The notes: a model not told the origin generated them from the letters alone. DNA of 62,935 nucleotides, filler included, from Craspedostauros australis (GCA_030167865.1; 11 parts of 11 records of this genome joined end to end with filler, not necessarily neighbours in it); one strand, 5' to 3'. Shown: positions 6,666 through 62,621, numbered from the whole stretch's first letter. Program-made: numbers and translations.

Positions 6666-6765
6666 NNNNNNNNNNNNNNNNNNNNNNNNNNNNNNNNNNN
6701 NNNNNNNNNTTAATTAATTAANNNNNNNNNNNNNNNNNNNNNNNNNNNNNNNNNNNNNNNNNNNN
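6666..6765. other. Artificial contig linker N44-TTAATTAATTAA-N44; the 12-mer also starts at 36314, 40949, 43613, 44935, 47108, 50846, 52263, 58754 and 61672
   Basis: The identical 12-mer, which has stops in all six frames, is centred in 100-bp N gaps ten times. Confidence 0.95.
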
Positions 6766-27689: not shown

Positions 27690-29336
27690 GGCGACACCGC
27701 GGTCGCTTGCCATCCATCGCGTTTGCAGCGCGGCGTCATTCTCGTTACGTAGGCTGAACATTGTGCGTAGCAACAACGGCTTCGAATGGGACACGCCCCG
27801 AATGGCTTTGCTCGTACTCTTTTCTCCAGTTTTGGTTCCCAGGTGATACTTACTCTCTACACGCTCATATCATACACACCGGTGTACTCCCAGGGAGCAC
27901 ATCGCCTGTATGGTGTGGCCATCCACGATACGGCATGCATCATCTCAAACATTAAATCATTTTAGCTTCTGTGTCACATTACCACAACAACGACGGCAAC
28001 AGTAACACAACAGTTAGCATTTCATTCGAGGCCTATCGCATTTCACATGTGCAACCCGTTCCAATGCAGAAACGGCAACTGCCTCCCATGCTCATGTTGA
28101 CGCTGAGGTTGCCGAACCCAAACTGCTGCTGATGTCATCTCCCGAAAATGTCAACACAGATGACGTCCTACTCGCTCCACTTGCGTAGTTTTCTATGTTT
28201 GATGGAAAGCTAGGACGATAACATGTGTTCGTCGGAAACCTTCGGGAGTTGCGGTAGTATATATTCAATTTGTAACGACAACGCCCAATCTCAACAAGTG
28301 AACACGTGGTCAGCTGTGACGTCGCGAAGCGATTATTTGTTGCGCATCAACAAAGAGTCGAGCAAGTCCAAAGGGAGAGTTTAGTCACGCGCTTTCTTGT
28401 CTTTCGATGGGGCACTAGTAACTGCATTGGATAAATGTCATGACAACTCGGGAGTGCACAAGAGTCCCAAGGGATTGGTCATGGCTGTGGCGAATCCGCA
28501 CAACGACATGAAAAAAACGACCACATAAGTAACACATGCACAATTCGCATTCTTCTTGGGTCCTCAATCAACGACGGATATTTTTGGTCCTGGGTGTGTT
28601 GTTGGTCGTTGTTCGTTGTTTGTTCACCGCGGTAGCAATTGTCACGCCGTTCACTAATTCCGGTTGGGCTTTTCCATCTCTCGCATTGGCACCGCGGGAG
28701 AAACACGCGTCTCACTCGCTCTGGTCGCAATGGTCATGCGCCCCGCCGGTGTGGGAGCGAGAAGTTTGCGCCTCCTCCCTCTTTGCCATACATGTTCTTG
28801 GTACCGTCGTATTATCCGGCAACGCAAACAGATGGCACCCACCGACGGCAGCAGCAGCAACAGTAACGACAACAACAACAAGCTTCTCCCCGCTCAACAC
28901 ATAGCGCAGCCTTCGTGGTCAACGAGGTACCCATCGGCCGTGCCCCTGCCTCCCTCACCATCCTTGATGCCATTCGTCCAACAAAATTTGAAAGTTCCGT
29001 CGCTGCTGACCATCATTGCTCATCAACGAGCTCATCGACGAGTGTCAAATCCCCACATCGACTCCACAGCCCACAGTCATCGCAGAGCAGGCCAGAGCGC
29101 TGCACCTAACCAATACTCTGCTGTCTTGCCCACCAATACACACCTGGCAGTCACAGCATCGAAGAGTCCCCATCGCTCGGCTCCAAATACAAGTAGAGTA
29201 GAGTAGAGTAGAGTCATCTGCATTGCCACCAACATCAGAAGTGCATAAGCAGCAGTAGTTGCAGCAGCCACCAACAACACCACCACCACCAACAACAACA
29301 ACACCCAGAGTGCTTGACGAGACGACCTGGATAGCC

Positions 29337-31010
29337 ATGGGGCAACACACAACTGGCCAGTATGTCGCCCTTGCGGTGGCGCTGACGACCAGCAGTCTGC
29401 TGTCGATCGTCTGCTCGATCCTGATCATCATGCAAATCAAGAAGGACCTCAAGAAGGTGTACCATCGCATCCTGCTCATGATCTGTCTGGGAGATCTGGT
29501 GATGAGTATATCCAATCTATTCCACCCGTACCTTCTGGACTCCGAGAGAAGTCCCGCTCCGTACGCTGTTGGGAACGCGGCCTCGTGCTCTGCCATGGGC
29601 TTCTTCCTCTACGGTTCGTTCATCTTCCTCTCGATCCACAGCTCCCTCCTCTCCATCAACTTCCTTCTGCAGATCCGTTTCAAGTGGACGGAGGAAAAGA
29701 TCAAGAAACGGGCGGAGATCATATTCCATATCATCGCCACGACGGTTGGTTTCGGAATTCCACTCGCTGCAATCGCGACGCAGGGGATATCGGCATCGGA
29801 TCAGATTGGACTTTGCGTGATGATCGCCTACCCGCTCGGTTGCACAACAGATGACGACGTAGAATGCGAGCGCGGAGAGATTACGGAGACGTATGTGGCA
29901 CCCATGCAATCCTACACGACCTACTTCTTCGGACTGCTGGGCTTCATCTGCACCTTTATCCTTTACCGCACGGTCCGCAGCATTACCCTTCAGAGCGGAC
30001 GTCATGCATTCGGTGGCGAGGCAGCGACGCCGGACAACGCGCAGCAGAAACGGCTGCGGCTGGTGTCGAGACAATGCGTCATGTACGCTCTGTAAGTTCC
30101 ATCGCTGATTGAATCTTGCTTGGGTTGCCACGAGTCAGGCCCTGTTGTTTGTGCTGGAGACGCCGTCGTACATTGCATTGTGCTGCCTGGCGTGGTGCAC
30201 GCAACAGTCCAGACTGCAGCCTTCAATTAGGCAGGAATCTACTCCCACAGAAATTCGCGCTGTCCACAACTCGGCTGGACTCAACTCAACTCACACCGAT
30301 ACCTTCGTCACATCCACATCAACACTTGCCTCTTCCAACTGCATCGAATTGAATCGAATGGAATGGAATGAACACCAAACATCGCTGTCGTCACCAATTT
30401 CATCCGCAGCGCATACTTCAACACCATCCTTTGGCCGGGCGTGACTCAATTAGCATTGACCATGATTGACCTCGAAGAGCACGAAGGCGAATTCGGGATC
30501 TTTGCTCTGAAGTTCGTGGCATTCCTCTTCTACCCGCTGCAAGGATTCTTCAACTTCATCATCTTCATCATACCAAGGTATCAGCAATGGAGAAGGGCGC
30601 TGCCGGACGAGCCATGGATGTACGTTCTGCGGTGCTCTATATCCAGCCAGGATGTGCCCAAGGCTCGCGGTGTAGGGTCGCGGACAGGTTCCGCAAGATC
30701 CCAGTACACCTCAGAAACGTCGCATAGGTGCACCTTCGGCAGACCGGGATCAGGTAGATGTCAGGTATCTGAATCGTTCAGCGCTACAAGGCATGCGCCA
30801 CAGGCATCGTCACCGCCCGCAACAGAGCAAAAGGAATGCAACAGCCCTGAGAGGTCATCAGATGAAAACGAACCAGATATGAGCAAGGTGGTGAAGGAGG
30901 AGGAGAAATCCAACTGCGCAAGTCGGGACCACGAGGAAGCATCCAATTCAGGCAGCCCCACAGAATCACTTGACGACAGCCAGCAGAGCACCGATGATGT
31001 GCGCACATGA
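29337..31010 (+). CDS. GPCR-like 7TM receptor (cAMP-receptor/Git3-like), copy 1; exons ~29337-30091 and 30410-31010
   Basis: VYHRILLMICLGD, GNAASCSAMGF, YPLGC..C and TM7 FYPLQGFFNFIIF. A phase-2 intron at 30092-30409 (GTAAGT...CAG) restores MYAL-AYFNTILWP. The start is uncertain. Confidence 0.85.
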
Positions 31011-32973
31011 TGGTCCGGGATGGTCTCCATCCATGCAATGGCATCTACATGCTGATCATGACCAGTGATCGTGCTCGTCGCTTGCCCAGCTTCTCTGCCG
31101 CCGCCGCCATCATCGCTTCCTCCTCCAGTCGCCAGCTCCGGATCCGATGTCGATCGTAACAGCAATTGCATTCACGTGACATCAGATCGCGCTCGCCGTA
31201 CCAGCCGTGGTCCTCATTCCCGATCGGCAAACTGTCCAGCTCCCTCATGCCTGAGCACAAACGTGATCCGATGTTGACGAAGCCAAGCTCCGCTCGGGGC
31301 TGAATCTGCAGGAGGCTGTCAACTCCAGCACATATCGATACGATATTCAGAGTATTCACGAGTGCAATCAATCAACTCCGCGCTCGGTGCTACCGCAGGG
31401 AGGCTCCTTTGGTATCACAGCAGCAGCCTTTCGAGCATTGCTGAGCCGTATGCGAGATCGACGATCAAGGATGGGCTCAAGACACGTGACGGCCAAGCAA
31501 GCACCACATTTGCATCCATCGGCGTGCACTCGACACGGCTACGGCCAACCAAGTACCGCGTTTGCATCCATTGGTCCGCAACACACAGATAGACCATGTG
31601 GTACTGCGAAAAGGAGAAACGATATGGCAGCTCTGCAGTAGGAGCACGCTCTGCCACCTGTGCGTGTCGACCCTTTGGCGATCCCATTATGCCAATACTC
31701 GTACGGCCGTGGAAATCATGCTTTGCGCTGACGACGTGTCCTGCATGCGGAGAGAGCGCTGACACTTGGGATGCTGTGGAGCGAAGGCCTCGGACCGCCA
31801 TGCTCCAGCCAACTCCAAATGCAAGAAGAAGGACTGCTCTACGTCTTATGCTGGGACTCTAGACTGGGACTCATGCCGTTGCCTCGCACTTGTGCTATGA
31901 ACTAATCTTTGCTCGGTCTAGAAAGACGACTACGGTTTCTTCCCACACATCATGTGGGAGCTATGTGGAATGTACTAAATAATCATAAATGACTTAGCTA
32001 TCTGAGACGTGCATGGTGAGTCACTATGCCATCTTGCTCGAAGTTGGTTCTTTTGGGGATCTTCAGCAAGCTGGAAAAGGCCACAAAGACGTGTTTTTCT
32101 CTGATGACACTTATTCTCTTCTCAACACAACACTCGAAGAACAAAACTGAAGATCTTGACATCTTCCAAGCAAAGCTGGTGACAATCGATGGGTCATGGT
32201 CGCAAGGAACCATATCAAAGCTGTTGAAGAGAATGATGCACTAAGTAGAAATTCATATGTAGTGTAAGTTGCATTCTTGTTCTTCGCAAACATGTAGTGC
32301 CTTAGTATGGGAAAATGTTTGTGCGCGGGAAAATGTTGCTCGCAAGTTGATCCCGATTACATCATGCTTCGTGTTGTTGTCGCTTAAACAATTGACTCCG
32401 TTGCGAAACGTGATCTGTCGAGATGGAGGCGAAAAACTTTTTTTCACCGAAGGGGACGGGAATTCCTGTCACGCCCAACGCGCTTTGGGTTGTTGCCTGT
32501 TTCTTGGTGCCTCCTGTGTGTGTTGGTGTGCTTGTTGCTTTCTCTTGTTCGCACGACAGCATCACAATGGACAGCACACAGGTTGTGGCTGCCACCAACG
32601 TGCTTCTCCTGCTTGCATCCACACACACACACACTTCACGGTCCGCCCCCCTTGGCGTTTGTGCTGCTGTTTGTTCAACAAACTGGAAGCTCCATCGCTG
32701 TCGATCATCTTTGCCCATCACATCCTCGCACTCTGGGCTGCATGACGGAGCAATTTCCAGGACTATACCGTACGAGCTGCTCTGTTGACTTGCCTGCACA
32801 CGCCTGGAACTCACAGCATCACAGAGTCCTGTTTCTCTGGCGTGGCTCGTAGGTGCTCGCGCCATCCTTCGCGCCAATCTTGGCCGTGATCATCAGCAAC
32901 AGAAGCCATAGAAACAGCAGGAGCCGCTGCTGTCAACACCCACACCCACAGAGCAATCGACGAGACGACCTGG

Positions 32974-34724
32974 ATGGTCACGAAACTACATACAACTGGC
33001 CAGTATGTCGCCCTTGCGGCGGCGCTGGCGACCAGCAGTCTGATGTCGATCATCTGCTCGATCCTGATCATCATCCAGGTCAAGAAGGACCTCAAGAAGG
33101 TGTACCATCGCATCCTGCTCATGATCTGTCTGGGAGATCTGGCGATGAGCATGTCCAACATAATCCACCCGTACCTCCTCGACTCCGAGAGGACCACCGC
33201 TCCCTACGCAATTGGGAATACGGCGTCGTGCTCCGTTATGGGTTTCTTCCTCTACGGTCCATTCATCTTCCTCTCGATCCACAGCTCCTTCCTCTCTATC
33301 AGTTTCCTCCTGCAAATCCGCTTCAAGTGGACGGAGGACCAGGTCAGGAAATGGGCCGAGACGACATTCCATATATTCGCCACAACGGTCGGTCTCGGCA
33401 TTCCAATCGCAGCAATTGCGACGCAGGGGATGACAACCTCGGAGCAGATCGGGCTTTGCTTGATGATCGCCTACCCGCACGGTTGCATCATAGATGACGA
33501 CATTGAATGCGAGCGTGGAGAGATCACGGAGACGTATGTGGCGCCCATACAATCCTACACGACCTACTTCTTCGGATTGCTGGGCTTTACCTGCACCTTC
33601 ATCCTTTACCGCACAGTCCGCAGCATCACTCTTCAGAGCGAACGTCATACATTCGGCGGCGACGAATCTGCGCTGGACGATAGCAAGAAGAAACGGCTGC
33701 GGCTGGTGTCGAGACAATGCGTTATGTACGCTCTGTAAGTTCCATGGCTGATTGAATCGGATCGGATCCGGTGGTTGCGCTGGAGGTGCTGTCACGTACG
33801 CATCGCATTGCTCTGCACTTCACTGTCTTGCTTTCTATTGCATTACGCTGCGCCCGTGGTATGCGTGCCATTGTGAAGGTTGTTACATTCTGCAGCACAG
33901 TCGAAGACGATGGCGTTTGTTGGAACAATAGGACAGCAACGCAAAGAGCACGAACTTTACCCTGTTCACCATCCAGCTTACCCCAAGCCAACTCAATTCA
34001 ACTCACACTGATGTCTCTTGCCACATCCACATTTGTCTTCTCCATGGAATGGGATGGGTTTGACGTGGATTGGAATGACAATTCCTGTACCACCGATGCT
34101 GGTATCGCCAACGCCATCTGCAGCGCATATTTCAACACCATCCTTTGGCCGGGCGTGACTCAACTCATTTTGACATTCATTGACTTCGACGAGCACAAAG
34201 GTGAATTTGGGATCTTTGCGCTGAAGTTCGTGGCATTCCTCTTCTACCCACTGCAAGGATTCTTCAACTTCATCATCTTCATCATGCCGAGGTACCAGCA
34301 ATGGAGAAGAGCGCTGCCTGATGAACCATGGATGTACGTGCTGCGGTGCTCCATATCCAGCCGGGATGTGCCCAAGGCTCGGGGTGTAGGGTCGCGGATA
34401 GGCTCCATCAGATCCCAGTACACTTCTGAAGTTTCGCAGAAGTTTACCTACAGCAGACCTGTATCTGGTAGATCACATGCATCTGAACCGTTCAGAGTTA
34501 CAAGGCACGCTGCGCAAGCATTGTCGCCATCTGCAGCAAAGCACAAAGAATGCAGCAGTCCCAACAGACCATCACGTGAAACTGAACCCGGTGCGAGCAC
34601 TGCAGAGGAGGAGGAGAAGGAATCCAACACCACTGATCGAGAGCATGAAGAGACATCCGATTCAGTCAGCCCGACAGAGGCACTTGACGATAGCCAACAG
34701 AGCACCAATGAAACTCGCACATGA
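32974..34724 (+). CDS. GPCR-like 7TM receptor, copy 2 (tandem paralog); exons 32974-33734 and 34124-34724
   Basis: Highly similar to copy 1, with the intron at the same position (33735-34123). Confidence 0.85.
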
Positions 34725-36369
34725 TGGTCCTGGCATGGTCTCCATCCATTGAGTTCAACGGTATGTACGTCGTGGTCATGACACAAATCATGCTCCTGAT
34801 GCGCCCAACTCATTCGCCTCCTCCACTCGCCGGCTCTGACTTTGACGGCGACAAAGATCAGGGCTGCATTTGCGTCGCATCTGATCACGCTCTCCGTACC
34901 GGTCATGATCCTCACTTCTGATTGGGAGATCATTTTGTGCCGAACCATCTGAGTACAAACGCAAGATCCGATGTCAATGGGAGCAAGTCGACGTCGAAGT
35001 TGAACCTGTTGGGAGTTCGCGACTGCAGCGCTTGCCGACAAGACATCATGAGTGTTCACGAACGCAATCAATTGAATGTAGCCTCGTCGCTGTCGCAGAA
35101 TCCCGCGATGAACCAAATGGCTCAGAGAGGCTCGCTCTGATACCACAAAAGCATGTGGCATTGTGAGAAGAAGAAACAATACGATGGCGCATCCTGACAC
35201 ACAAGTCATGCAGAATGCTCCGCTACACCCTTCAGCACCTCCGTTGTCGACGTGCAGGACACTGTCCGGAGACAGGAGAGGCGACATTCTTTCACCTCGA
35301 CTGGACCCTTGCCGAATCTGCATCTGCTGCTGCGCGACAAGATGATTCGAACCAGGGAACTGCGGCTTCGTGTGGGACGGTGGGAGAAGCAAGGAGAGGA
35401 CGACCTTGCTCGGGAGTGGACGAGTCGGCCAGATTCTGGAAGGGTTGTCACTTGGAGAGAGACTGTTGAGACGACTACCACAGCACAGGCTCGGTCCTGT
35501 TGGGTTTCTTCGAATTGAAAAGGAAGTTGTCGATGGCATCCATGCTGTCAGCAACCGCGCATGAGGGCAGGCTGGACAACAAGCTCAATGCCTGCGATGT
35601 TTGGCGAAAACTATACCTCTCTGGAACAGGCAAGATGTTGACCTGGCGACGCTGTGATTCATGAAGAGGATGTGCACGACCTCTAGCCTCGAGCAGAGTC
35701 TCCATCGGGTTCATGACATGACCAAAGATAGAGCTTTTCTCCACACAAGCATAGCAGAGCAACAGCGCTTCGACATGCACGCAGCCGTTCCCATTAGTCC
35801 TCTGTTCATGGCTCGTACCTCAGCCCGATAGACGTTGCTGTTACGACATTTCCCTTTGTCCGCATTCGCACACACGTGGCTCTCGGGCTGGATAATAGAT
35901 TAATTCTCCACACAAACAACCACGAGGGGCGTGGCCATGCTGGGAATGGAGCCTTTCGGCGTTCAGTGTTGCCGATGTGGGGAGATTGCGTGGTGGTCGT
36001 GTTTCTCGGTGCCGGTTGCTCGTTCTTGTTTTTGCGTTCTGTGGCGGGAATTCGTGAATGCCTATGTGGCAACAACCACAGAGAGAGTAGAGGCCTATCG
36101 CATTTCACATTCACACCCCTGTGCTCATGTCACATGTGGCACTCACGTTCGGATTTCACATTGGTACTCGTGACTAGTTCGTGATCTACTCAGAAAGACG
36201 ACCAACATGACTGAATCGGCTTCTCTTCTGTAGAATAGAGCTCTAGTTTAGACTGCTCTGATATGAATGNNNNNNNNNNNNNNNNNNNNNNNNNNNNNNN
36301 NNNNNNNNNNNNNTTAATTAATTAANNNNNNNNNNNNNNNNNNNNNNNNNNNNNNNNNNNNNNNNNNNN

Positions 36370-36795
36370 GAGATCTGACGGTGCATGCTTGTCAGGGATG
36401 GATACATATGGGGTATATGGAGACAATGAGATGCGCAGGTGGTCGAAACGAGATGGTTATGGGCATCATCTTGGATGGCAAAGTGATGGCACCATGGTCC
36501 CATCCAGAGTTTTGCGGCACACACAATCCCACGTTATCAACAAAAATGCTGTTAAATTTGAAGTTAATTTTAATTTAAGTTCAATATTCCTATACATCGC
36601 AAGTTNNNNNNNNNNNNNNNNNNNNNNNNNNNNNNNNNNNNNNNNNNNNNNNNNNGATATAGCATCATAAGCACTTTTTGGGATGGATTGCATTTTTGCT
36701 CTAGACTGGACTACGCAACACGACTAATCCCACGTTGGAGGGCAAAAAACTCTACAACTAGTGCTATCGCTTTGCCGAGTGAGTGAGGTGGAAGG
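36370..36795. mobile_element. Terminus of a TA-targeting DNA transposon, inserted into a transposase gene
   Basis: Near-identical to 61992-62417. Both copies end ...GAGTGAGGTGGAAGG followed by TA, after which the flanks diverge. Confidence 0.8.
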
Positions 36796-37283
36796 TAATG
36801 TGCCTTGCTGATTGGGAGATGAGGGTGTTTTGGTTCCCAGGTGCGAAAATCGGTGCCATCGACGGTCACTGCGAAGACTGGCGCGTTGGGGTGATCCAGC
36901 GACCTCTTCTCCCAGACGATCTTCTTTTCGCGGAGTGCTGCGATCCGCTTGATCCACTTCCAAATCGCCTTTCCTCGTGCGTATCTCTCGCAAACACCGA
37001 AGCGGGATACGATGACACCCGAGTTTTTTGGGTAAGTCCACAGGAAGAAGTGGGCAATCATGAAGAATTGGAATCCTTTCATTGACTGTTCTTGTGCGTC
37101 GATGGCTGCCGCACGGATGGTTGTGTGACACAAGTCATACCAAATCTCTGCGACGTCCAGTGGGTTGGAACCATAATGCTGACGGAACAGAACCGTCAGG
37201 GCTTCAATGGCCTTCCACTTCGTGTCCTGGATCCCCACCAACTCGAGCCCAAGCGTGAGGACGGTGTTTGCGCTGAGGAACAT
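36796..37283 (-). pseudogene. PIF/Harbinger-like (DDE_Tnp_4-type) transposase, N-terminal half, interrupted by an insertion
   Basis: FRQHYGS, FLWTYPKN, TVDGTDF. Homologous to 41005-41760 and 43669-44246; the homology stops at the TA at 36796. Confidence 0.85.
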
Positions 37284-37414
37284 GATGCGTAGAATAGATG
37301 AGATGATGTTGACTATCGTGATTGATCCTGTGAATTGGTGGAGTTGTTGTTCTTATGATTGGTGCATTGACTGTTGCTGCCATGTTTGTTTCCGTCGTAG
37401 TCGTAGTCGCAATC

Positions 37415-37449
<35 letters not shown>

Positions 37450-37837
37450 CCGTGCTGCGACGTTGATGTTCGTCTTGTTGTTGCTGCTGCTGATAGCGGT
37501 GATGATGATGTTGGCTCTGAATTAGCGAGCGTGTTAGGCATGCGCCGGCCGCTGGCAACACATCAGTCCAAAATAACGGAAAGACGGGAAATAGCAGCGT
37601 GCAAGCATTCAACTACATGTATGCACTATGACAGGGATAGAGCAAGGTAGTTTGGCGACGTGTAGCAAACACGGGAGATGCCATTCTGCGACGGTTGCTC
37701 GTTGGTTTCGATGAACCCATTGTCGCCAAGTGGTAGGCATGACACAGATCGTCGTGATTGCGCCCGTTGTTGCTGTTGCCCATGTTACTGTCGAGGAACG
37801 CACGATGCCATCACAAATCAACCAATTACAGAGCAGG

Positions 37838-38275
37838 ATGGTGATGAAAGGCAAACCAATTTCCGTCATTGGCGGCAAGTACAAGGGTCTGATTGGGTGG
37901 GTGAACGTGGACAAGAAGCCAACCAAGACTCGCCTTCCAGTCGTCTTGCAGCTCCACGATGGCGAGCAGAAGGCGACTGCCATCAACAAGGAGAACGTCA
38001 AGCGCCGCAAGATCCCAGCAAACAGAGCCGAGGCAATCATGCAACAACAGCCTGACATCAACAAAATGGTTAAGAAGCTCGCGATGGCGTTGTGCGACTG
38101 CTGCAATCTCGGTGTTGTGGAGGGGAACAGCCGCATGACTCTCCGTAGCGGGGATCTTCTAAGCTTCAATACAATTCTCCTGCAGAAGATCCACGAGGCC
38201 ACAGATATTCGCAAGGAGCTTGGCGATGACGCAAACATCCGTGTGGTTGATGTGAGCGAAGTCAAGATGGGGTGA
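37838..38275 (+). CDS. Transposon-associated small protein with an N-terminal KOW-like motif
   Basis: MVMKGKPISVIGGKYKGLIGWVNVDKK; a homolog starts at 44808 next to the other transposase. An upstream ATG at 37805 is also possible. Confidence 0.7.
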   Translation: MVMKGKPISVIGGKYKGLIGWVNVDKKPTKTRLPVVLQLHDGEQKATAINKENVKRRKIPANRAEAIMQQQPDINKMVKKLAMALCDCCNLGVVEGNSRMTLRSGDLLSFNTILLQKIHEATDIRKELGDDANIRVVDVSEVKMG

Positions 38276-38452
38276 CGGGCAACAGCAAAGCGCATCAAAC
38301 ACCAACCCCACCATGTCAATAGGAGACTAAAATAGGCAACAGACCAAGCACCATTTCTCTTCACTTGTTCACTAGTTATTATTGTTACGATTGTGCTGAC
38401 TGCTCATGGCAGTTGCTCCTTCCTCTTGCTGTGCTACTCGTCTGAGCTGCCC

Positions 38453-39805
38453 TCATGCGCCAGCGCCATTGCCATCCTCTTCGTCAAACAACTCGAGGTA
38501 CTTTGCCATTGCGGTCGGTTTGGGCACTGAATTCAAGCGGCCGCCTTGCAAAGCCACCTTCCAATACACAGAAGCTCCGTAGGTCACACGCCCAAGCTCT
38601 GTTGTGCCTTCACTGGCACGCTGGAGAGACAAGTGGGTCACGATGGTGTTGTCAATGAGCCGTGGGAACACGGTGTGATCGAACCGGACGTTGATCGGAA
38701 AAATCACAAGCCAGTACGAGAACTGACGTTCTTGGGAGGCCTGGATGCTTGCGATCGTAGAACCCAGGGCGTTTTTTGCCGTTCCGCAATCTTCATCCCC
38801 AGCGTAGTAGCGCTCTGCGTCGCGATGCCAGCCGGAGGTGCTTGGGCCGCGAATCATGATTGCACGCTCGGAGAGGCTGGGGGCGGATACAGGGATTGTT
38901 GCCGTCCACTCCTTGATGTCGTGGAGGGAAGTCGGCACCCGAATGTGATAACCCGAGAAGTTCGCATTCTTCACAGCAACGTCATTGACGTGGTCAATGA
39001 GAAAGGGACCGTTGCGTTCGGGGAACCTGGTATTAACCGGGATTTTGTACGGGTTCTCTTTTGTTCCGTCTTGGGCATTGGCAAAAAGAGAAGCGAGCGC
39101 ATCGTTTCCAACATTGGCCTCCCCAAGTCCACGGGCAGACATGCCAGGGGAAGCAAAGGAAGGGGCCGGCGAAGCGAACGATGGCGGTCCGAAGGCGCGC
39201 TGTGGCGTCTCCACCCGGTTTGGCAAGAGCTGATCCTTGCTTGGGGTGGACATCCCGTCGAGATTCATGTGTACAGTGTTGCGTTGGAGTGGTGGTTTGT
39301 GAATGGCAGCTGTTGATGGCGGAGCTCGGACGGAGGTTTTGTTCACAGAAGAAGGAGCAACGGGCGGTTGTAGTGAGATGCCATTAACCGCGTCAACAAG
39401 ATCATCAACACTGTCACCGACATCATCCGTGTGCGACCCATCTGAACTGCCCAAGCCATCTGAGTGATCCGAGGCATCCGAGGCATCCGAACTGTCCGAG
39501 TCCTTCTCCTTTGTCTTCTTCTCATGCTCCTTGAGCTCGGCGAGAGTCCCTTTGCCGACTTCGATTTGCGATTTGCGAAGGAGCGACATGTAGCTCGTGA
39601 TCGTCCGCTTCTTGAGCCCGCTGAACAACCGACTGCTCTGCACGCGACGATTGGATCCTGGTGCACCAAACAGAACGTTGTCGTCGTCACAAACTTCTCT
39701 TGAGAATCTAACTTGCTGTCGACTCTTGCCAATCTTCTCAACGGCTCGAGCGATGCTTTCGGCCAGACACTTACGATCGTTCTTGCTGAAGCTGGTGTCT
39801 TGCAT
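38453..39805 (-). CDS. Hypothetical 450-aa protein, probably transposon-associated
   Basis: Intact long ORF. A globular-looking N-terminus and C-terminus (GTKENPYKIPVNTRFPERNGPF) are separated by an S/D/P-rich linker. Confidence 0.7.
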   Translation of the reverse strand: MQDTSFSKNDRKCLAESIARAVEKIGKSRQQVRFSREVCDDDNVLFGAPGSNRRVQSSRLFSGLKKRTITSYMSLLRKSQIEVGKGTLAELKEHEKKTKEKDSDSSDASDASDHSDGLGSSDGSHTDDVGDSVDDLVDAVNGISLQPPVAPSSVNKTSVRAPPSTAAIHKPPLQRNTVHMNLDGMSTPSKDQLLPNRVETPQRAFGPPSFASPAPSFASPGMSARGLGEANVGNDALASLFANAQDGTKENPYKIPVNTRFPERNGPFLIDHVNDVAVKNANFSGYHIRVPTSLHDIKEWTATIPVSAPSLSERAIMIRGPSTSGWHRDAERYYAGDEDCGTAKNALGSTIASIQASQERQFSYWLVIFPINVRFDHTVFPRLIDNTIVTHLSLQRASEGTTELGRVTYGASVYWKVALQGGRLNSVPKPTAMAKYLELFDEEDGNGAGA

Positions 39806-40433
39806 TATCGGTGGAGATTATGAGATGATGTTGTTTGGAAGCGCTGCTGTTGAGGAGTTGGCCGTGTTGTTACTTTCCGCAGAGGTTGTGAACGAATCAT
39901 CGCGTGGTTCCAGCTTCACATCATACGAGTGCTCGCGACAGCTTGCGATTCCGTCGGACAAAAACCATCAGCGAGGGAACCAATGCTGCATTTCAGACCG
40001 GATGCCCGCCAAGTCTGAACGGAAGAAGGACCATGAAATTGGGAGGATTGTTCACCAGACATTCCAACCAAATCAGAGCTATTGTGGTTTCTGTACAATG
40101 ATCTCGGCATGTATGTGCAAAACTATTCAGCAGGTTGCTGCACATGACCAAGACTGCCGTGGCAAGAAACACATGAGCCAGCTTTCTGTTGTGAGATTGT
40201 GAACGGGGAGGGAAAGATGGAGCATTGGGTCCAGCTTTGTGGCTGTGTGATGGTGTGAACAAACACACGACTGCTTCAAATTGTATTGTTCTAAGCGTCA
40301 CTCTAGAGCACCTGCGTGCGCGCCATCATTGGCGCCAGTACTGATACTGCTATGGGCAAGGAACCAATGGAGACACTATTAAATTGCAATGCATTTGAAA
40401 TCATAATCGTCACATGAAGGGCAAGCTGGAAAG

Positions 40434-40904
40434 ATGGCATCCAACACGCCGAAATTCACCTGGCGCTGCAATCCAGCTGGCGCAATGATGAAGAACGACT
40501 TCGACATTGGCGGCATCTTCCACGAGGTGGATGTGTCTGTGGACGAGGCGTGGGCGCACTACCGCGTCCTGGAGCAATTCAAGGTTCCAGGGATGACGCA
40601 AGCTGTGTTCGCGAGATACTTCAAGCAATTCGAAAAACGCGTGAGCAAGAATCGTGGCCGCTCTGCCACTGAATTGCGTGCGCTTGAACATGACCGAACG
40701 TTGCATCCTCAGCAACGACGCAACATCCGTGGGAAGCCCGTCATGTACCTGTCTCCCGCGAAGCCCCTTGCTCGTCCAAGATATCAAGCAATCGAAGCAT
40801 TTGGAAATGACACCAGCCGAACTCAAGGCTAGCAGACCAGAGTATGCTGCGTTCGATTTGGTGCAGTTCAAGCAGCACATCTACCAAGAAGCCAAGGCGC
40901 AGAA
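40434..40904 (+). pseudogene. Transposon-associated protein with an internal repeat; +1 frameshift near 40768, truncated by a gap
   Basis: WRCNPAGAMMKND is echoed by YLSPAKP/LLVQD, followed by RPEYAAFDLVQFKQHIYQE in the shifted frame. Confidence 0.6.
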
Positions 40905-41004
40905 NNNNNNNNNNNNNNNNNNNNNNNNNNNNNNNNNNNNNNNNNNNNTTAATTAATTAANNNNNNNNNNNNNNNNNNNNNNNNNNNNNNNNNNNNNNNN
41001 NNNN

Positions 41005-41760
41005 TGTCACACAGAGATTCCTGAGGCCAACCTCAACACAAAAGATAAAACGATGAAGGGCTTTACATTCTTCATGATTGCGCACTACTTTCTGTGGCTT
41101 TATCCCAAAAACTCCGGCGTCATTGCGTCTCGGTTCTGTGTGTGTGAGCGATACGCACGAGGAGAACACATCTGGCGATGGGTGAAAAAAATTGCCGCGC
41201 TTCGGACGAAAAAGATCGTGTGGGATTCGTCTCTGGACCACCCCGACTCCTCTGTTTTCGCCATCACGGTTGATGGCACTGATTTCCGCACTTGGGAAAA
41301 AAAGCACCCGACTCTGCCAATTGATCGCGCGCAGTACTCACACAAGTTTAACCACGGCGCGGTCAAGTACGAGATCGCGCTTTCTGTCTTCTCTTCCAAA
41401 TGCGTGTGGATCAGTGGGCCATTTCCTGGTGGCACCCACGACCGGGCTATTTTCCGTCATGGTCTCATGGACAAACTGGCAACAGGGAAACTTGCCATTG
41501 CCGATCGTGGATACCAAACCAGCGTGGCGGCTCAACGCGAACAACTGTCACTTCCAAGCGGTACCGACTCGTGGCGGCTCGCCAAGTTCAAAAGTCGGGC
41601 ACGATGTCGTCACGAAAGCTTCAACGGGCGGATCAAGAAATTCAAGTCGATGGACGACACTTTTCGCCATGGGTACGAGTGTCACATGCATGCTTTCGAA
41701 GCAGTGTGTGTCATCATACAGTACCAAATGGACAACGGATCAGAACTCTTTGCAGTGTGA
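41005..41760 (+). CDS. PIF/Harbinger-like DDE transposase (5' end in gap)
   Basis: TVDGTDF, YSHKF, GPFPGGTHD, IADRGY, RARCRHESFNGRIK and FRH; the catalytic D-D-E appears intact. Confidence 0.9.
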   Translation, partial: CHTEIPEANLNTKDKTMKGFTFFMIAHYFLWLYPKNSGVIASRFCVCERYARGEHIWRWVKKIAALRTKKIVWDSSLDHPDSSVFAITVDGTDFRTWEKKHPTLPIDRAQYSHKFNHGAVKYEIALSVFSSKCVWISGPFPGGTHDRAIFRHGLMDKLATGKLAIADRGYQTSVAAQREQLSLPSGTDSWRLAKFKSRARCRHESFNGRIKKFKSMDDTFRHGYECHMHAFEAVCVIIQYQMDNGSELFAV

Positions 41761-42000
41761 CCACGAACTCTTTCTACAGTCTGTTTCACATGTATACAGT
41801 AGTCACCACATTAAAACGTAGACAACAACACTCCAACTCCACACTCGTCTCTGTTGTGATCTGTCCAGAGCAGGGCAGAGCTGAGGCGAGCCACCATTTC
41901 GTGGTCTGTTTGTGTGACCAAGTGCACTTGATTAGTTCGATCACTTCCCGACCTTGTCTTCTTGGGTCACGAGTGACAAAATTGTGCGATTTATTTATCC

Positions 42001-42160
42001 GTCATTAGATATATTTAGACGTCATTTGATTTATTTAGACGTCATTAGATATATTTAGACGTCACTCGATTTAAATAGCCCTCATTCGAATTAAATAGAC
42101 GTCATTTGATTTATTTAGACGTCATTAGAAATAAATAGTCGTCATTCGACTTATTTAGAT
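42001..42160 (+). repeat. 8 x 20-bp tandem array (consensus GTCATTAGATWTATTTAGAC), probably transposon subterminal repeats
   Basis: Exact 20-bp period, 240 bp downstream of the transposase stop. Confidence 0.85.
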
Positions 42161-43320
42161 TTAGGCGCTGATTGTCATCGGTATTGACGGGACTCGGTCA
42201 TTTGGGCCAGCGGCATCGATGCCTCGTTGTATTTGTCCGAAGTAGGNNNNNNNNNNNNNCTCACTAAGTTCTTCGAAAGGAGGTTCGTTCTTCGCCAATC
42301 GCGGAATGTCAATTGCGGCTTTCTTGTGTCTGGTGACAAAATCGGTGTTGGATGTCAAATTAGTCGTACTAGTCGAGTTTCCGTCTCCGCTGCTTTTTGC
42401 CGGGTGTCCCTGAGGAATCCACTTAGCCGTAAGTGGACTCCTCAGTCCCGAAAAATTCCTTACGGATATCGGAGATACAGAGTTAGGAGGTCTATTTCAA
42501 ATGATTGGTCGACTCGCTCACCGGGACCATATTCATCACAGATTCCGACTTGTATTGTACGTATGGATCGTGAGATAGTCGATGTAGTCTAATATTCCAA
42601 GATACGTTCGTGCAACGTCCGCAAGGTCGCCAAGGTCCGTGTTATTGGCTGGCGACTTTTCTCTCGCTGTCTGTGTCCTTGTGTTGTGTCTGTTGCGGAG
42701 GTTTGTGATCCTTGTGCGCGGAATCCTTCCCTTCCTTCGAATGGTGATGTGTTCGTGTCCGTGAGTTTGTGTCTGTGTCGTCCACGCTTCCTCTGCTGGT
42801 GTCAGTGTCGGTGTTCGTACTTTTGGTGGTGCGCCGCCTTCCACGTCCAACGTACATGGGTACAGTATCGTGGGGGCAGAAGGAGCAATTCCACGAAGTA
42901 TTCGATGCGGATCGTTCCTACTTTTGACTGCGGCGATGTTGTCCTGCGTGGCGCGCGAAAACAAACACGCCATGGCATCACGAGCCTTCGCTTGACTTCC
43001 GTCTCTGTTGGGTTCACAGACTTTCCGCGAGAGCGCTCTTCCCCACTTCACCGCATTCGTGCAGCCACTCAAACCAGAGCATAGTACTTTACTTTAGATC
43101 GTACCAACAGACTGAAGGGATAGCGGTAAGCCCAACAAGGAGGCACAATCAGAGCAGAGCATCGCGCCATCGTCCGAATGTAACTCCCGTTCCTCTCTTG
43201 CTCTCTTACGATCTATTATATCAGCAGTCGTCGACTCGTACCACTACTAATAGTCGTATCCGCATTAGTGCTGTGCTGTGATACGCTCTGCACCAGAGTA
43301 CGAGCAGAGACACAGCAAGA

Positions 43321-43568
43321 TGCCCGCGTCGATGACGGAAGACATGCTGACGGCGACGGATCATGACCTCATGGACGCCGCAATGAAGCCGCGCTCTGCT
43401 TCCGGCGGCGGCGCAGATCCCAACGCAAAGGAAGCGGACTCCGTCAGGACGAAGTCATCCGAAGCCAAAGATAGCGATGGTTCCGACGGTGCTACGAACA
43501 GCAGTGGTAACAACGATGCCTCAAAGCAGCGGCAAGGCGACGAGGAGCAACAGGAAAGCAAGGACTCC
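43321..43568 (+). CDS. N-terminal fragment of a low-complexity protein, truncated by a gap
   Basis: Open frame MPASMTEDML...ESKDS running into Ns; no recognisable domain. Confidence 0.4.
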
Positions 43569-43668: not shown

Positions 43669-44246
43669 CCAGGAAATGGCCCACTGATCCACACGCATTT
43701 GGAAGAGAAGACAGAAAGCGCGATCTCGTACTTGACCGCGCCGTGGTTAAACTTGTGTGAGTACTGCGCGCGATCAATTGGCAGAGTCGGGTGCTTTTTT
43801 TCCCAAGTGCGGAAATCAGTGCCATCAACCGTGATGGCGAAAACAGAGGAGTCGGGGTGGTCCAGAGACGAATCCCACACGATCTTTTTCGTCCGAAGCG
43901 CGGCAATTTTTTTCACCCATCGCCAGATGTGTTCTCCTCGTGCGTATCGCTCACACACACAGAACCGAGACGCAATGACGCCGGAGTTTTTGGGATAAAG
44001 CCACAGAAAGTAGTGCGCAATCATGAAGAATGTAAAGCCCTTCATCGTTTTATCTTTTGTGTTGAGGTTGGCCTCAGGAATCTCTGTGTGACACAGATCA
44101 AACCAGATCTCGGCGATGTCGAGAGGACTGGAACCGTAGTGCTGACGAAAAAGCGCAGCAACAGTGTCGTTCGATTGCCGAGCTGATGGGTGAACCCCAA
44201 CCAACTGGAGGCCTGTCATCAGCACATCATGAGGACGCAGGAACAT
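43669..44246 (-). CDS. PIF/Harbinger-like transposase, N-terminal part (3' end in gap)
   Basis: MFLRPHDVLM...TVDGTDF...GPFP. 43669-44093 is the reverse complement of 41005-41429. Confidence 0.88.
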
Positions 44247-44263
44247 GGTANGGCTGATGTTGT

Positions 44264-44298
<35 letters not shown>

Positions 44299-44807
44299 TG
44301 ATTGATGATGAGATGCTGATGCTGATGTTGTGATTGATGATGCAGTTGTTGTTNTTCCTTCATGCAACGTGTCTGTCACAAGAAGGGACGATCTCGTCCG
44401 CGAAGAGACCAATCCTGCAGCAACAAGCACTTCACCAAACACGGCACAACGACTTGGCGACACAACAGTCATGGATCGAGGCCCAGTTAGCGAATAGTGA
44501 TGGCATGTGCTCAGAACCAAGAAGTATTTTCACGCAAAATGAGAGTGCTTTGTTTGTCGATGTGAATGATGGTCGTGATTTGGCGACTGGACCCAGACAC
44601 GCGAAAATGACGAAACAGTTTCGTGTTGCGTTGTCGTGAAGCACCACGGCAGAAAGGAGAACACAGCGAGCGCTGGTACTGGCGTTTCCGATGTTCGCTG
44701 ATTGATCAACCAACACATCCAACGACAAGCCCACAACATCACTCATCAGATCACAACACCAACACCAACACCACAACAACAACAGCAGCATCAATTGCAG
44801 CATCACC

Positions 44808-44890
44808 ATGGGCACGAAGGGAAAGCTCATCGCCATCACTGGAGGAAAGTACAAGGGTCACATTGGCTGGGTGAATGTGGACAAGAAGCC
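44808..44890 (+). CDS. KOW-motif transposon-associated protein, second copy (truncated by a gap)
   Basis: MGTKGKLIAITGGKYKGHIGWVNVDKK, homologous to the 37838 ORF. Confidence 0.7.
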
Positions 44891-45143: not shown

Positions 45144-45276
45144 TACTTTCATCGAAGTGGTGTTACTTTCATCGAAGTGACATTACTTTCATCGAAGCGT
45201 GACTACTTTCATCGAACCTGTGTTACTTTCATCGAATGGTTGCGACCATCATTGGCGCGTGCGTACTTTCGTCGAA
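45144..45276 (+). repeat. 20-bp-period array with invariant core TACTTTCATCGAA
   Basis: Cores at 45144, 45164, 45184, 45204 and 45224, plus a variant at 45264; the 7-bp linkers vary. Confidence 0.9.
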
Positions 45277-49700: not shown

Positions 49701-51450
49701 CTTCACCCTACTAACACCACTAAGCTAACTCATAATTATCAGACAAGGATTAGCTACAAAGCACTCATCTACTCATCATTACAGTAACACATCTACAATC
49801 CAGTACACCTCTCTTGAACTGCATTACACGGCTATCTCGAAGCTGGCAGATTCACAAGGCATCCTCCACCGATTCGCGTCGCCTAAGCCCGAATCCTAAC
49901 TCATATCCATGATCTCCATGATGCCACAGTAATAGAATCTTTGGATTCTGTTCTGATGTGGAGTCAGCTGTTGATGTGGGGACACATGACATCGTGTCAG
50001 TGCCAGCTGTCATTCCATACTCCTTCACATTCCATATTCCGTTGATGATGTTGATGGGAGGCAAAGGTATTGTCATTTTGGGTATAGTTGTGAAATATTT
50101 CGACCTGAACTTGATGTCACTTGTTTCTGTCGAATGGATGGACAGACCAAATATCTGATGCTCTCAGATAATGGTGTTCACCCATTGCCTTCCGAAATGG
50201 TGAACACATTGGCACGCGTAAATTCGTGATGTGATTCACTCAATCACGCTTCATTGATGACATGAATGTTAGCGCCGTTTGCACAGAGAGTACAAGAGAA
50301 TAATGGGTGAGTAATGCACATACACCTATGCACATTCCGACACACAAACAACACGAAAAAAGATGCAAAAGACTACTCTTTCCCATTCAGTGTGTCAGGA
50401 ATCGGGGGTACGCTTTTACCAAGATACCCATGATTGCCGCACCTCCCAATAATATCTTCACAACTCGACGAGGTCAACTTCGTTGGTAACACTCGGACCA
50501 CCTTGCAGCCTGTCCCCCATCAACCCTCTGTTCATGAATGATATCAACATCAGTCATGTCCCACCATGGAGCCTATCCATGTACCACCGCTGTGATGAGG
50601 GCGAACCTATGGGTCGACCTCTAGGGATGTATTCGCACATGAGCCAAGACTATGGGCGAAACTGTCGATATATATCAGACATGTCGATGCACATCGACGG
50701 ACAAGGGATCGCTTCTTTGAGAAAGAGAAACGGAAGCGATGCCCCTATCCGCTCAAGAGCACGATTGACGACGCGACATGGAACGAACATGACCGGTGAG
50801 TNNNNNNNNNNNNNNNNNNNNNNNNNNNNNNNNNNNNNNNNNNNNTTAATTAATTAANNNNNNNNNNNNNNNNNNNNNNNNNNNNNNNNNNNNNNNNNNN
50901 NTTATACATAATTAACCGTTACATTTTTTGTTAGATCTTTATTTTAAGTTTTATGGAGTGATCTATGAGTGCATAGCAGTCACGTTGGTCCAACAGCACA
51001 AAACCCGTTGTTGTTGGCAGAAGGTTCTATGATGTTCTCATTTATTTATCGTGAGGTGATCAGTCACGGACTTGCTTCCGAAGGTCTCAGTCGTTTGGTA
51101 CGCGTTAATTACACGTTAGCATGTGGCGCATGATTCCACATTCTGCTCGTCACAAAACAGATGACACAAAACACATCACACAAAACACATCATCTCCAAC
51201 ATTTCGCAAAATCGCGCCACACTATGGCTCCATTCACAACTTTCCTCGCCAATGCCATGCACACTCGCCCTTTCGCTCCATGCCCGTTCTCGTCACACTA
51301 GTAGTAGTAGTAGTGGTTGCTGCTGTTGTTGTTGTTGTCACCAGGTGGTTGGCCTTTCATCGTATGCTCTCCTTCCTCACTTCGTCTCAACCTCTGCAGT
51401 TCATCACATCCAACGAGCAAACAGCACTACTCTCCACCAACAACTCCACC

Positions 51451-56353: not shown

Positions 56354-56882
56354 GGACGCAAGATCGTCTGCATTTACCTGCTTGCCGTCCCAACGGACAG
56401 GCCAATGGAGGGGAAGGCAGACGAGAAAGCGCATGAGAGAGAAGCACTCTCCGCTGGGCACTCCATGCTGGGCGCTGAACCGTCGGAAAGCGACGATGGC
56501 AGGCCTCATTCGATTTGACACGAAGAAAAGCGACGAAGGAGGAGAAAACTTCGCCACTCGCGCTCGTACTCGTACTAACACCGGTACGAGCTCCACGGGT
56601 GAGAACAGAAAGGAGGCGAAGGAAAAGAGATTCAGAATCCATTCTCGCCACCCTCCATTCTCATAATCACAGATGCAGACAGAAACAACCAGAATCGCAA
56701 TCACACAGCAGCACCAAACACTACAATACCGCACATCATCAACATCATCATCATCAACAGCAGCAGGAACAGCACTGGAGTAACAACACACACTGCTCCT
56801 CAAACAGATACTCACTCTGTCGGAGAAAGAACTCAAACCATCGCAAATACTACTGCAAAGACCATCCCCAAAGACCATCACA

Positions 56883-58703
56883 ATGACAGGACACTCCAAG
56901 AGCACATTACCACCCTCCCTCACGGCGACAGAAGCAACCGCCATGTCGGCTGTGACCACCACGGATGCACCTAATGCACCTAATGCAACCAACGACAACA
57001 ATGAGGGAGGCGTCAACCCGTACTCGATGATGCACAGGACGTTGCAGAGCAAGGAGGCCAACTACGTCACGCACATCCTCCCCAACGACGTCCTTCTCGG
57101 ACGTGGAACTGGCCCCAACGACCACCCCGGCAACGTCACCTTCCGCAACCTCATCAAGGACCAGTTCAACAACTACAAGACAGCCTGCATCCGAGGCGAG
57201 AAGACCAAGATGGCCAAGAGGGTCGTCACCTACATCCGTAACCAGAACGGGCGCTTCCTGCGTCGTCTGGATGCCCACGAGATGCCAGCCGCCTTGGCAG
57301 ATCCCCAGCGCGATCACCACCTGGTCGAGGATGCGGAGGTGTACCTGGAGATCAAGGATGATCGGCTGCTGGTCCAGAAGACGAAGCAGGCCTTCCGGCA
57401 CTTGATTCGCCAGGCAGGACAATCCACCTCGCAATCCCAGTCGCCATCCACATCCCAGGGTGCAGGTACAGGCCAGGATCAAGGGCAGGGCCACTTCGCC
57501 CCGCTGTCCAGGAGGAGCAAGGCTCGATCCGCTTCGATGTCCATGCGATCACGGTCTAGATCGAGATCCCCTGACACGGTGTCATCCGGCGAGAGCGGCG
57601 TGGCACCAAGATCGTACGGCAGGGCCCGACGGCTCTCCGCAGCCGCATCGGCATCGACGTCGGGTTCTGTCTCCGCCTCTGTGTCCACCAGCCACAGCCG
57701 AGCGCAGCTCGATGGTGATGGCGCTGCCGGCTTGGTGGGCCACACTGGGACCAACATGGACGTGGAGATGAATGCGGGCATGGGCGTAGGTATGGGCATG
57801 GGCATGGGAGCCAACGGCCATGCCCAGGCAGGCGCTGGGGCAGCAATGGGCGAATCAGGTGCGCCACCAGTGAGCATGATCTCCATTCAAAAGTCCGCCC
57901 TGGCCCCTACCTTCAGCACGTCATCGCTGGACTCGTCGGTCGGCACCAACTCGGTGACGCATCGTCATGCCACTGGTGCTGCTGCCGGTGTCGGTGCCCC
58001 CAACGCCATGCTTGGGGCAGAAGCTGACATCGATGCAAGGCTCGCAGCGCTCAGGGTGTCCGGTCTGCCCGGCTTGTCAGCTGCGGCAGCAGCAGCAGCA
58101 GCATCCAGACCATCTCAACTGTCCTCGCTCGCCCTCCAGCATCAGAGGCAGCAACAGCTGCAGCTCCAGCTGCGACAACAGCAACAACAGCAACAGCAAC
58201 AGCGAGACTCGCAGCTACTCAAGCTGATGGCAGTCAACGATGCCCAGCTGCGATCTCGATTGGCCAAGGCCCAGCTTCTGGACGCTCTATCTACCCCAGG
58301 TGTGTCCGCTGGCGGTATTGCCAACGCTGCTGTTGGAAATGGCACTGGCAATCCATCCGCCCTTGCCCAGCTGGCGTTGGCATCGCAGCCTTCCCAGCTG
58401 GCCGCGCCGATGTCTGCGCCGAACACGTCGGATGTTCTGGATGCGGCGCTGCGTCTTGCTGCATCTCGCAAGATGGCGGCATTGCAGTCGGCATTGGGAG
58501 CAACCGCGGGCGTAGGTGCCGGAGTCGGAGCAGGCGGACTGGGAGTGGGTGCTCCTGTGTCCGCGACGGCGGCGGCGGCTGCATCAGCGGCTCTGGCAGC
58601 CAGATCAGGAGGAGTTGTTCGTCCAGGCATGGGAGATCGTCACAGCTTGCTGCTGGAACTCCTGGCTGCGGAGCAGACGATGCGGCAGCCGGCCTTTCGT
58701 TAG
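56883..58703 (+). CDS. DUF6824-type diatom protein with a polyQ/Ala-rich tail
   Basis: NDVLLGRG...HPGNVTFRNLI...Y...K...GRFL...KTKQAFR signature in a 606-aa intact ORF. Confidence 0.88.
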   Translation: MTGHSKSTLPPSLTATEATAMSAVTTTDAPNAPNATNDNNEGGVNPYSMMHRTLQSKEANYVTHILPNDVLLGRGTGPNDHPGNVTFRNLIKDQFNNYKTACIRGEKTKMAKRVVTYIRNQNGRFLRRLDAHEMPAALADPQRDHHLVEDAEVYLEIKDDRLLVQKTKQAFRHLIRQAGQSTSQSQSPSTSQGAGTGQDQGQGHFAPLSRRSKARSASMSMRSRSRSRSPDTVSSGESGVAPRSYGRARRLSAAASASTSGSVSASVSTSHSRAQLDGDGAAGLVGHTGTNMDVEMNAGMGVGMGMGMGANGHAQAGAGAAMGESGAPPVSMISIQKSALAPTFSTSSLDSSVGTNSVTHRHATGAAAGVGAPNAMLGAEADIDARLAALRVSGLPGLSAAAAAAAASRPSQLSSLALQHQRQQQLQLQLRQQQQQQQQQRDSQLLKLMAVNDAQLRSRLAKAQLLDALSTPGVSAGGIANAAVGNGTGNPSALAQLALASQPSQLAAPMSAPNTSDVLDAALRLAASRKMAALQSALGATAGVGAGVGAGGLGVGAPVSATAAAAASAALAARSGGVVRPGMGDRHSLLLELLAAEQTMRQPAFR

Positions 58704-62417: not shown

Positions 62418-62621
62418 TAGGCAAAGTGTGCACGAGCGGCAGAGTCGTCCAAGACACCAAGCTGGGCAATAACAAAAAGCAAGACCACAATGCACGGAAT
62501 GTTCAGGTGAAGGAGGGCATATGAATAAATGTGCCCTTTCAGTCGCAAACCAACGAGTCGCGGGAGAGAGCGATATTTCTGGCCAGTTGGTTCGTCCTTC
62601 CGATACTGGAGGTGGTTGTAA

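Follow-up and report, generated by a model that had tools for sequence, protein, structure and literature searches.

PIF/Harbinger elements are the textbook case of DNA transposons in which the transposase needs a separate DNA-binding partner. According to the passages of PMC4482050 that deal with the PHIS groups, a Myb/SANT protein accompanies the transposase in PIF/Harbinger, Pangu, NuwaI and NuwaII, while the partner is a YqaJ protein in ISL2EU and is absent from Spy; the abstract of a 2026 preprint states that Harbinger mobilisation typically needs the transposase together with a MADF DNA-binding protein. Harbingers of Ectocarpus are described in part of PMC12477816 as two tail-to-tail genes, while sections of PMC12730594 describe PHISTA of Puccinia, with three proteins that all lack Myb/SANT, and refer to HarbingerS of Phytophthora, which bears a SET gene. 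Here, we analyse a locus of Craspedostauros australis (GCA_030167865.1) which lies in a stretch of 62,935 bases (the window), consisting of 11 contigs joined by ten N44-TTAATTAATTAA-N44 linkers (6666-6765, 36270-36369, 40905-41004 and seven more); as the contigs are linked artificially, adjacency across linkers has no biological meaning. Contig 36370-40904 (4,535 bp, with a single internal N50 gap at 36606-36655) holds four open reading frames (ORFs) on alternating strands (-,+,-,+), compactly arranged within 4.2 kb, and all four frames show a coding-like GC content at the first, second and third codon positions (GC1/2/3). A sequence-only reading had taken them for a candidate four-gene Harbinger-like transposon made up of a DDE transposase, a KOW-motif ORF, a 450-aa ORF (ORF3) and an internally repeated ORF (ORF4). 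The alternation of strands within one contig was described correctly, and the four-gene unit was not borne out. We read the contig, with a probability of about 0.6, as a damaged copy from a diatom lineage of PIF/Harbinger-superfamily (DDE_Tnp_4) cut-and-paste transposons, the core of which is a pair of a transposase gene and a KOW-like gene.

The transposase is best seen in a second copy located on two other contigs of the window. Its 5' part (43669-44246, minus strand, 192 codons by tblastn) and its 3' part (41005-41760, plus strand) stand on contigs 43669-44890 and 41005-43568, which overlap by 425 bp (41005-41429) at 100% identity, so that both contigs carry the same element. Joined via this overlap, they give an open gene of 302 codons running from 44246 to 43669 and continued by 41430 to 41760. 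The 3' part matches DDE_Tnp_4 (PF13359) of Pfam at 41053-41760 with E=2.4e-12, and three full-length relatives match the same family at E=3.4e-12 to 2.7e-8, with the domain at residues ~140-289. In a collection of 5.8 billion proteins, 280 of 426 candidates were relatives at E<=1e-3; among the 120 listed, identities are 47-65%, most proteins have 300-305 aa and most carry PF13359, and the sole relative with a species name comes from the diatom Fistulifera solaris (56% identity). Clusters of this family have up to 29 members. Judged by this homology, the predicted transposase is a member of the PIF/Harbinger/ISL2EU (DDE_Tnp_4) superfamily, which confirms the earlier call of a Harbinger-like DDE transposase on the intact copy as well as on the three relatives, the species-named relative being a diatom protein. 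The two copies of the element diverge by ~28% in DNA and are spread over three contigs of the window. A search of genome contigs with the transposase alignment returned one outside locus only (L001), 20.5 kb of a 442,783-bp contig in a 4.8-Mb bin labelled Desulfobacteraceae bacterium, where a solitary broken transposase gene stands beside a ubiquitin hydrolase gene. The genes of this locus are of eukaryote type (ubiquitin C-terminal hydrolase family 1, E=3e-47; fatty-acid desaturase; the broken diatom-type DDE_Tnp_4 gene), and the contig is probably of eukaryotic origin, wrongly assigned to a bacterial genome.

The copy on contig 36370-40904 retains the 5' part of the transposase gene. Within the minus-strand ORF 36711-37283 (190 aa), the family match is limited to residues 1-163, that is, to a DDE_Tnp_4 transposase fragment at 36795-37283 (minus strand, 163 of ~302 codons), which was delimited by tblastn to the second copy (64% identity to 44246-43761 and 70% to 41005-41337); the fragment taken alone shows no Pfam domain. 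When aligned with 55 family members, the fragment retains the VDGTD motif with its invariant D142, G143 and D145, and it ends ahead of the columns that hold the further conserved D (IADRGY) and E (RHETFNGR). As in DDE_Tnp_4 enzymes generally, these conserved D/D/E columns are presumably the catalytic residues. Since the residues beyond 163 are lost and only the first conserved D is left, this copy cannot encode its own transposition; of the compact transposase ORF claimed from sequence alone, the DDE homology to the Harbinger superfamily thus stands but not the complete gene. The last 27 residues of the 190-aa ORF come from an unrelated repeat of 428 bp (36370-36797, containing the N50 gap), which abuts and truncates the transposase gene with the break at 36795-36798. 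It is 94.6% and 95.8% identical to 61992-62215 and 62278-62419 on the last contig, the copies 36370-36797 and 61992-62419 diverge at the same base in both contigs, and the terminal 22-mer has two exact occurrences in the window versus 0 expected. The sharp common boundary reads ...GGTGGAAGGTA, with 'TA' as the last shared dinucleotide in both contexts; an inverted copy of the repeat terminus was not found in the window. The repeat, at least 428 bp long, may be the end of another mobile element, and the simplest reading is that the gene was cut by nested insertion of this other repeat or by a rearrangement at the repeat's end. An apparent transposase match at 62336-62575 was rejected as a third copy; it consists of the shared repeat tail and noise.

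The second gene of the proposed core is the KOW-like ORF at 37838-38275 (plus strand), a candidate accessory protein of 145 aa with an N-terminal KOW/SH3-barrel-like motif. It is separated from the transposase by a divergent intergenic region of 554 bp from ATG to ATG (37284-37837), which contains a (GCTGTT)n microsatellite. Its start recurs in the second copy at 44808-44890 (plus strand), where the first 27-28 codons precede the contig end, and this second start lies at the far end of the very contig that bears the 5' half of the second transposase gene, in the same head-to-head orientation and behind a 561-bp spacer between positions 44246 and 44808 that contains a comparable hexamer repeat. 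The two KOW-like starts share 78% nucleotide and 75% amino acid identity from the ATG (tblastn and DNA comparison). Similarity between the two spacers is absent except for the hexamer microsatellites and resumes ~15 nt before the ATG at 37838/44808, so that the gene probably starts at 37838 and encodes 145 aa, not 178 aa. Over the 27 comparable codons, the proportion of nonsynonymous differences (pN) is 0.118 versus 0.606 for synonymous ones (pS), which is, as far as these codons reach, the signature of a protein under constraint, and the ORF has GC1/2/3 of 0.55/0.34/0.70. Because order, orientation and spacing are the same in two diverged copies and pN is far below pS, the two-gene core of transposase and KOW-like ORF is probably real. 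The core of the lineage would thus comprise a compact DDE transposase of ~302 aa head-to-head with a KOW/SH3-barrel-like protein of ~145 aa, ~555 bp apart, and the conserved pair is probably a new variant of Harbinger-superfamily element. The idea of a distinct diatom lineage with its own accessory module is upheld in as far as the transposase/KOW-like pair occurs in two diverged copies, but not for the four-gene module.

The stop of the second-copy transposase is followed, at a distance of 228 bp, by 8.6 tandem copies of a 20-bp unit that has a GACGTC core (41988-42159, plus strand; found with TRF). The consensus of this array is GATTTATTTAGACGTCATTA, and a motif scan gave 6 matches, all inside 41988-42159, versus 1.1 expected. 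Subterminal arrays serve as binding sites in other cut-and-paste elements, and by analogy this one is a candidate subterminal array of protein-binding sites. Another 20-bp tandem array (4.9 copies of the unit TACTTTCATCGAAGTGGTGT) lies at 45144-45240, near the start of the next contig. The candidate subterminal array bears on whether the pairs are mobile at all, as they might instead be immobile paralogous domesticated genes, analogous to a HARBI1-type transposase and its partner. The purifying selection on the KOW-like start, the wide occurrence of the transposase family on transcript-sized contigs and the solitary relative adjoining host genes in L001 would all agree with domestication. However, another repeat has truncated one of the copies, the contigs carrying them are short and fragmented, as those of repeats typically are, the transposase has hundreds of diverged relatives in clusters of up to the size given above, and a subterminal-like array follows the intact copy, which makes domestication very improbable in our view.

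ORF3 (38453-39805, minus strand) encodes an intact 450-aa protein of an unannotated family, as had been predicted for the minus strand. A HMMER search against 1.84 billion cluster representatives gave 319 relatives at E<=1e-3, 174 at E<=1e-10 and 9 at E<=1e-30, many of them aligned end to end, and the hidden Markov model (HMM) of the family spans positions 8-402 of 405 in ORF3. One family member comes from the diatom Attheya sp. None of the 45 aligned members has a real Pfam domain (2 show low-complexity matches only), and the ORF3 profile has no relative among PDB sequences. An AF2 model based on the 45-sequence alignment reaches a pLDDT of ~95 in both of its domains, an N-domain of six helices (8-106) and, beyond an acidic disordered linker, an alpha/beta C-domain of beta-sandwich type (232-420). 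A Foldseek comparison of this model, which the sequence-only reading had suggested as a check, returned nothing at E<=0.001 in PDB or in BFVD (viral). VIA-align, which is independent of Foldseek, placed HSP20/CS beta-sandwiches nearest to the C-domain (Z 6.1-6.9; 28 chains with Z>=5, none >=8) and helix-turn-helix proteins nearest to the N-domain (Z 4.1-4.6), all values which fall within the range of common arrangements according to the search's own calibration. The helical N-domain is possibly DNA-binding. In the C-domain, the family has near-invariant polar residues, namely the PERN motif, HIR and GPS..W as well as a Cys with T-K..H after it, and this conservation suggests a binding or catalytic site in a fold that has no clear known relative.

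Whether ORF3 belongs to the element was approached via the genomic context of its relatives, with cluster look-ups for 30 of the 150 listed representatives. Most members of the ORF3 family are found on metagenomic or transcript-like contigs of 1-8 kb. In 3 of the 30 clusters (P0049, P0064 and P0118), 4-8 members with >=90% identity stand on different contigs of 0.2-1.6 Mb, a dispersed multicopy pattern typical of mobile DNA that could also reflect several assemblies or haplotypes. A comparison of contig sizes between 103 ORF3-family members and the 120 listed transposase-family members revealed 4 exact coincidences. In one, the ORF3-family protein P0326 and the transposase-family protein P0216 both lie on JGI contigs of 8,026 bp and both belong to clusters of 17 members, and in another, P0314 of the ORF3 family and P0237 of the transposase family both lie on ENA contigs of 1,410,145 bp, the identity of the contigs being deduced from size in either case. 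As few contigs in either list exceed 6 kb, chance is an unlikely explanation for these two. Nothing was returned when metagenome contigs were searched with the ORF3 alignments, viral contigs with the KOW-like ORF, the ORF3 family and the transposase, or genome contigs with a degenerate KOW pattern and two alignments of the ORF3 family. Taken together, ORF3 is a plausible third gene of such elements, at odds that fall slightly below even, and otherwise it may be a neighbouring host gene.

Several observations weigh against a diatom Harbinger lineage built on this pair and joined by ORF3. In the second copy the KOW-like gene is visible over 27-28 codons only. Its best Pfam match is KOW5_SPT5 (PF23290) at E=0.11, with 12.5 bits versus a cut-off of 27, PF00467 is not matched, and the ORF has no match among PDB sequences. 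A word-index search found no homologue at E<=1e-3 among 78 candidates, in a database of a size at which a short conserved motif could not reach the threshold, and a single-sequence AF2 model has a pLDDT of 36.6 and is unusable. The language-model-based Atlas returned KOW-type clusters for all ten best matches, with scores of 0.78-0.81 and a 'recognition' of 2335, where scores are meaningful from 0.9. The KOW label is therefore a weak lead and not a result; what stands of the KOW-motif ORF claimed earlier is an ORF with a second copy and KOW-type leads in Atlas, but the assignment is sub-threshold in Pfam and the length is likely 145 aa. Neither terminal inverted repeats (TIRs) nor a target-site duplication (TSD) were found, and comparing the flanks of the two copies, the alignment proposed earlier for defining them, gave no inverted pair, so that mobility of any unit is not shown here. 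The left end of the copy on 36370-40904 has been replaced by another repeat and its right end lies off the contig, and the second copy is split over two contigs; the termini had been supposed to fall in gaps, but the 'gap' on the right, at 40905, is where the contig ends, and the left N50 gap sits inside the unrelated repeat. L001 has neither a KOW-like ORF nor ORF3 within 10 kb or in its 4.8-Mb bin, and a match to ORF4 was likewise not found there.

The remaining points concern ORF3, and they also favour the most serious alternative, according to which only the transposase/KOW pair is a transposon, ORF3 and ORF4 are ordinary host genes which, in a gene-dense diatom genome, happen to stand beside a decayed insertion, and the ORF3 family has expanded within a lineage as a gene family and is not transposon cargo. 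Of the neighbours, the transposase is truncated and ORF4 frameshifted, but ORF3 is intact; ORF3 and ORF4 each occur once in the window (tblastn; ORF3 family HMM on the six-frame window). The best relatives of ORF3 are only 25-37% identical to it, far more diverged than those of the transposase with their 50-65%, and the link between ORF3 and the transposase via equal contig sizes is indirect; the two further coincidences, of 1,727 and 1,542 bp, are chance, as such contigs are too short for both proteins. Many ORF3-family proteins come from contigs of 1.4-2.5 kb that hold little beyond the gene, and ORF3 is not set apart from host genes by GC3, which among the window ORFs does not distinguish transposable elements from host genes. 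On the other side, near-identical ORF3-family members occur on different Mb-scale contigs, the 8,026-bp and 1,410,145-bp contig sizes are common to both families, and the end of ORF3 lies merely 177 bp from the KOW stop. Host origin of ORF3 and ORF4 is thus a substantial possibility, although short of the probability we give to a damaged Harbinger-superfamily copy from a diatom lineage with the transposase/KOW-like core.

ORF4 (40434-40904, plus strand) is a putative frameshifted gene of no assigned family. Its frame A (40434-40832, 132 aa) ends at a TAG, and the overlapping +1 frame has no stop between ~40640 and the contig end; the natural reading changes frame around 40755-40770, and both parts have a coding-like GC1/2/3 pattern. 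With two overlapping coding-like frames, ORF4 looks like a gene with a 1-bp frameshift, and probably it is a frameshifted gene cut by the contig end. The internal repeat ascribed to it earlier is not supported, as BLASTP between the two parts gives E=1.5. ORF4 has no Pfam match and neither frame has a PDB sequence match, and its membership in the element is improbable. This bears on the possibility that the four ORFs together make up a single autonomous Harbinger-like transposon of four genes, equipped with an accessory module of its own. The compact alternating arrangement within 4.2 kb, the coding-like composition of all four frames, the indirect co-occurrence of ORF3 with the transposase and the existence of multi-gene Harbingers, such as the three-protein PHISTA, which lacks Myb/SANT, and the SET-bearing HarbingerS in the relevant sections of PMC12730594, speak in its favour. 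Termini were not found, however, ORF3 and ORF4 have no second copy in the window, the copy is truncated, and ORF4 is frameshifted, runs off the contig end and is without Pfam or PDB relatives, and an autonomous four-gene unit is improbable.

The expected partners were looked for on both copies. Myb/SANT, MADF and YqaJ gave no Pfam match at E<=10 on the KOW-like ORF, ORF3 and ORF4, and none at E<=0.05 on 18 ORFs in the flanks of the two copies, a search bounded by the fact that neither copy is complete and by the sensitivity of Pfam; the absence of a Myb/SANT or YqaJ partner noted at first sight was thus confirmed by Pfam on the contig and on the flanks of the second copy. In the damaged-copy reading, the small KOW-like protein would stand in for the Myb/SANT-type partner of canonical elements, and it would guide the transposase to subterminal repeats, of which the 20-bp array would be an example, and/or into the nucleus. 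A more far-reaching version, which we consider unlikely as a whole, is that of a diatom-specific PHIS group whose Myb/SANT partner has given way to a module of two parts, the 145-aa KOW/SH3-barrel protein, encoded in divergent orientation to a minimal 302-aa transposase, and ORF3, the latter with a helix-turn-helix-like helical domain, an acidic linker and a novel beta-sandwich. This module would target the element, e.g., to the 20-bp subterminal repeats or to transcribing chromatin, and in marine diatom communities elements of this group would be abundant as well as expressed.

The other contigs of the window carry eukaryotic genes, among them those for a P-type ATPase, a nucleotide-sugar transporter, ankyrin repeats and DUF6824. 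The DUF6824 domain (E=1.5e-18) is part of a 639-aa ORF at 56784-58700 and is typical of diatoms and other stramenopiles. A tandem segmental duplication (29293-31062 / 32934-34782, 86% and 78% identity) comprises one gene and its neighbour, the duplicated gene showing a weak match to a Frizzled/Smoothened-type membrane region (PF01534, E=1.1e-4, just below the cut-off). Furthermore, a 40-bp stretch at 5168-5207 is 90% identical to 42486-42525 in inverted orientation, on two unrelated contigs, and the nearby segment 5271-5320 matches 50908-50957 at 84%; these matches may be short dispersed repeats or regulatory motifs.

What had been taken for an element is a nested, truncated copy on a chain of contigs joined by linkers, and its gene content cannot be used as an element map. 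If a KOW-like small protein indeed serves as the partner of the transposase, the partner slot can be filled by a different fold. The transposase/KOW pair would be tractable for excision assays in diatoms, in which DNA-transposon biology is barely described; Harbingers of diatoms are only mentioned in passing in the open-access papers searched. Independently of the element, ORF3 defines a large and unannotated family that folds confidently in AF2, has diatom members, occurs in multiple copies on chromosome-scale contigs and is without a family in Pfam.

In comparison with known proteins, the C-domain of ORF3 resembles HSP20/CS (p23-like) folds (4rzk_B with Z 6.3, root-mean-square deviation 2.9 and 79 aligned residues; 2xcm_C with Z 6.1, 3.2 and 81, respectively), but with Z below 8 this may be a common arrangement, and ORF3 differs from them by its extra helices, its own conserved polar residues and the absence of a sequence or Pfam signal. 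With KOW/SH3-like barrels of the Spt5/NusG and ribosomal L24/L26 type, the 145-aa protein shares a glycine/lysine-rich N-terminal motif followed by predicted beta-strands, whereas its score lies below every Pfam cut-off, relatives are not detectable and its C-terminal helical half matches nothing. A KOW-like Harbinger partner was not found in the open-access full text searched, although it may already be catalogued in Repbase or Dfam; text matches to 'kow' in PMC3212892 and PMC12477816 are species and author names. ISL2EU and Spy belong to the related DDE transposase superfamily; the YqaJ nuclease ORF of ISL2EU was not found here by Pfam, and Spy is a single ORF without TSD. The genes of the Ectocarpus Harbingers are tail-to-tail in the part of PMC12477816 concerned, while those of the diatom element are head-to-head and its transposase is short (~302 aa). 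PHISTA and HarbingerS are likewise Harbinger-superfamily elements with extra genes, the third protein of PHISTA being without Myb/SANT and HarbingerS occurring in stramenopiles, and non-canonical Harbinger cargo therefore already has precedent; unlike their TET/JBP or SET cargo, of which Pfam found none of the domains here, a KOW-like partner is not mentioned in the sections of PMC12730594 that describe them. Like canonical PIF/Harbinger, Pangu and Nuwa elements, the diatom element combines a DDE_Tnp_4 transposase with one accessory ORF as a two-gene core, but where canonical PIF/Harbinger elements have their partner, the accessory ORF is without a Myb/SANT or MADF signal and carries a KOW-like motif at its start.

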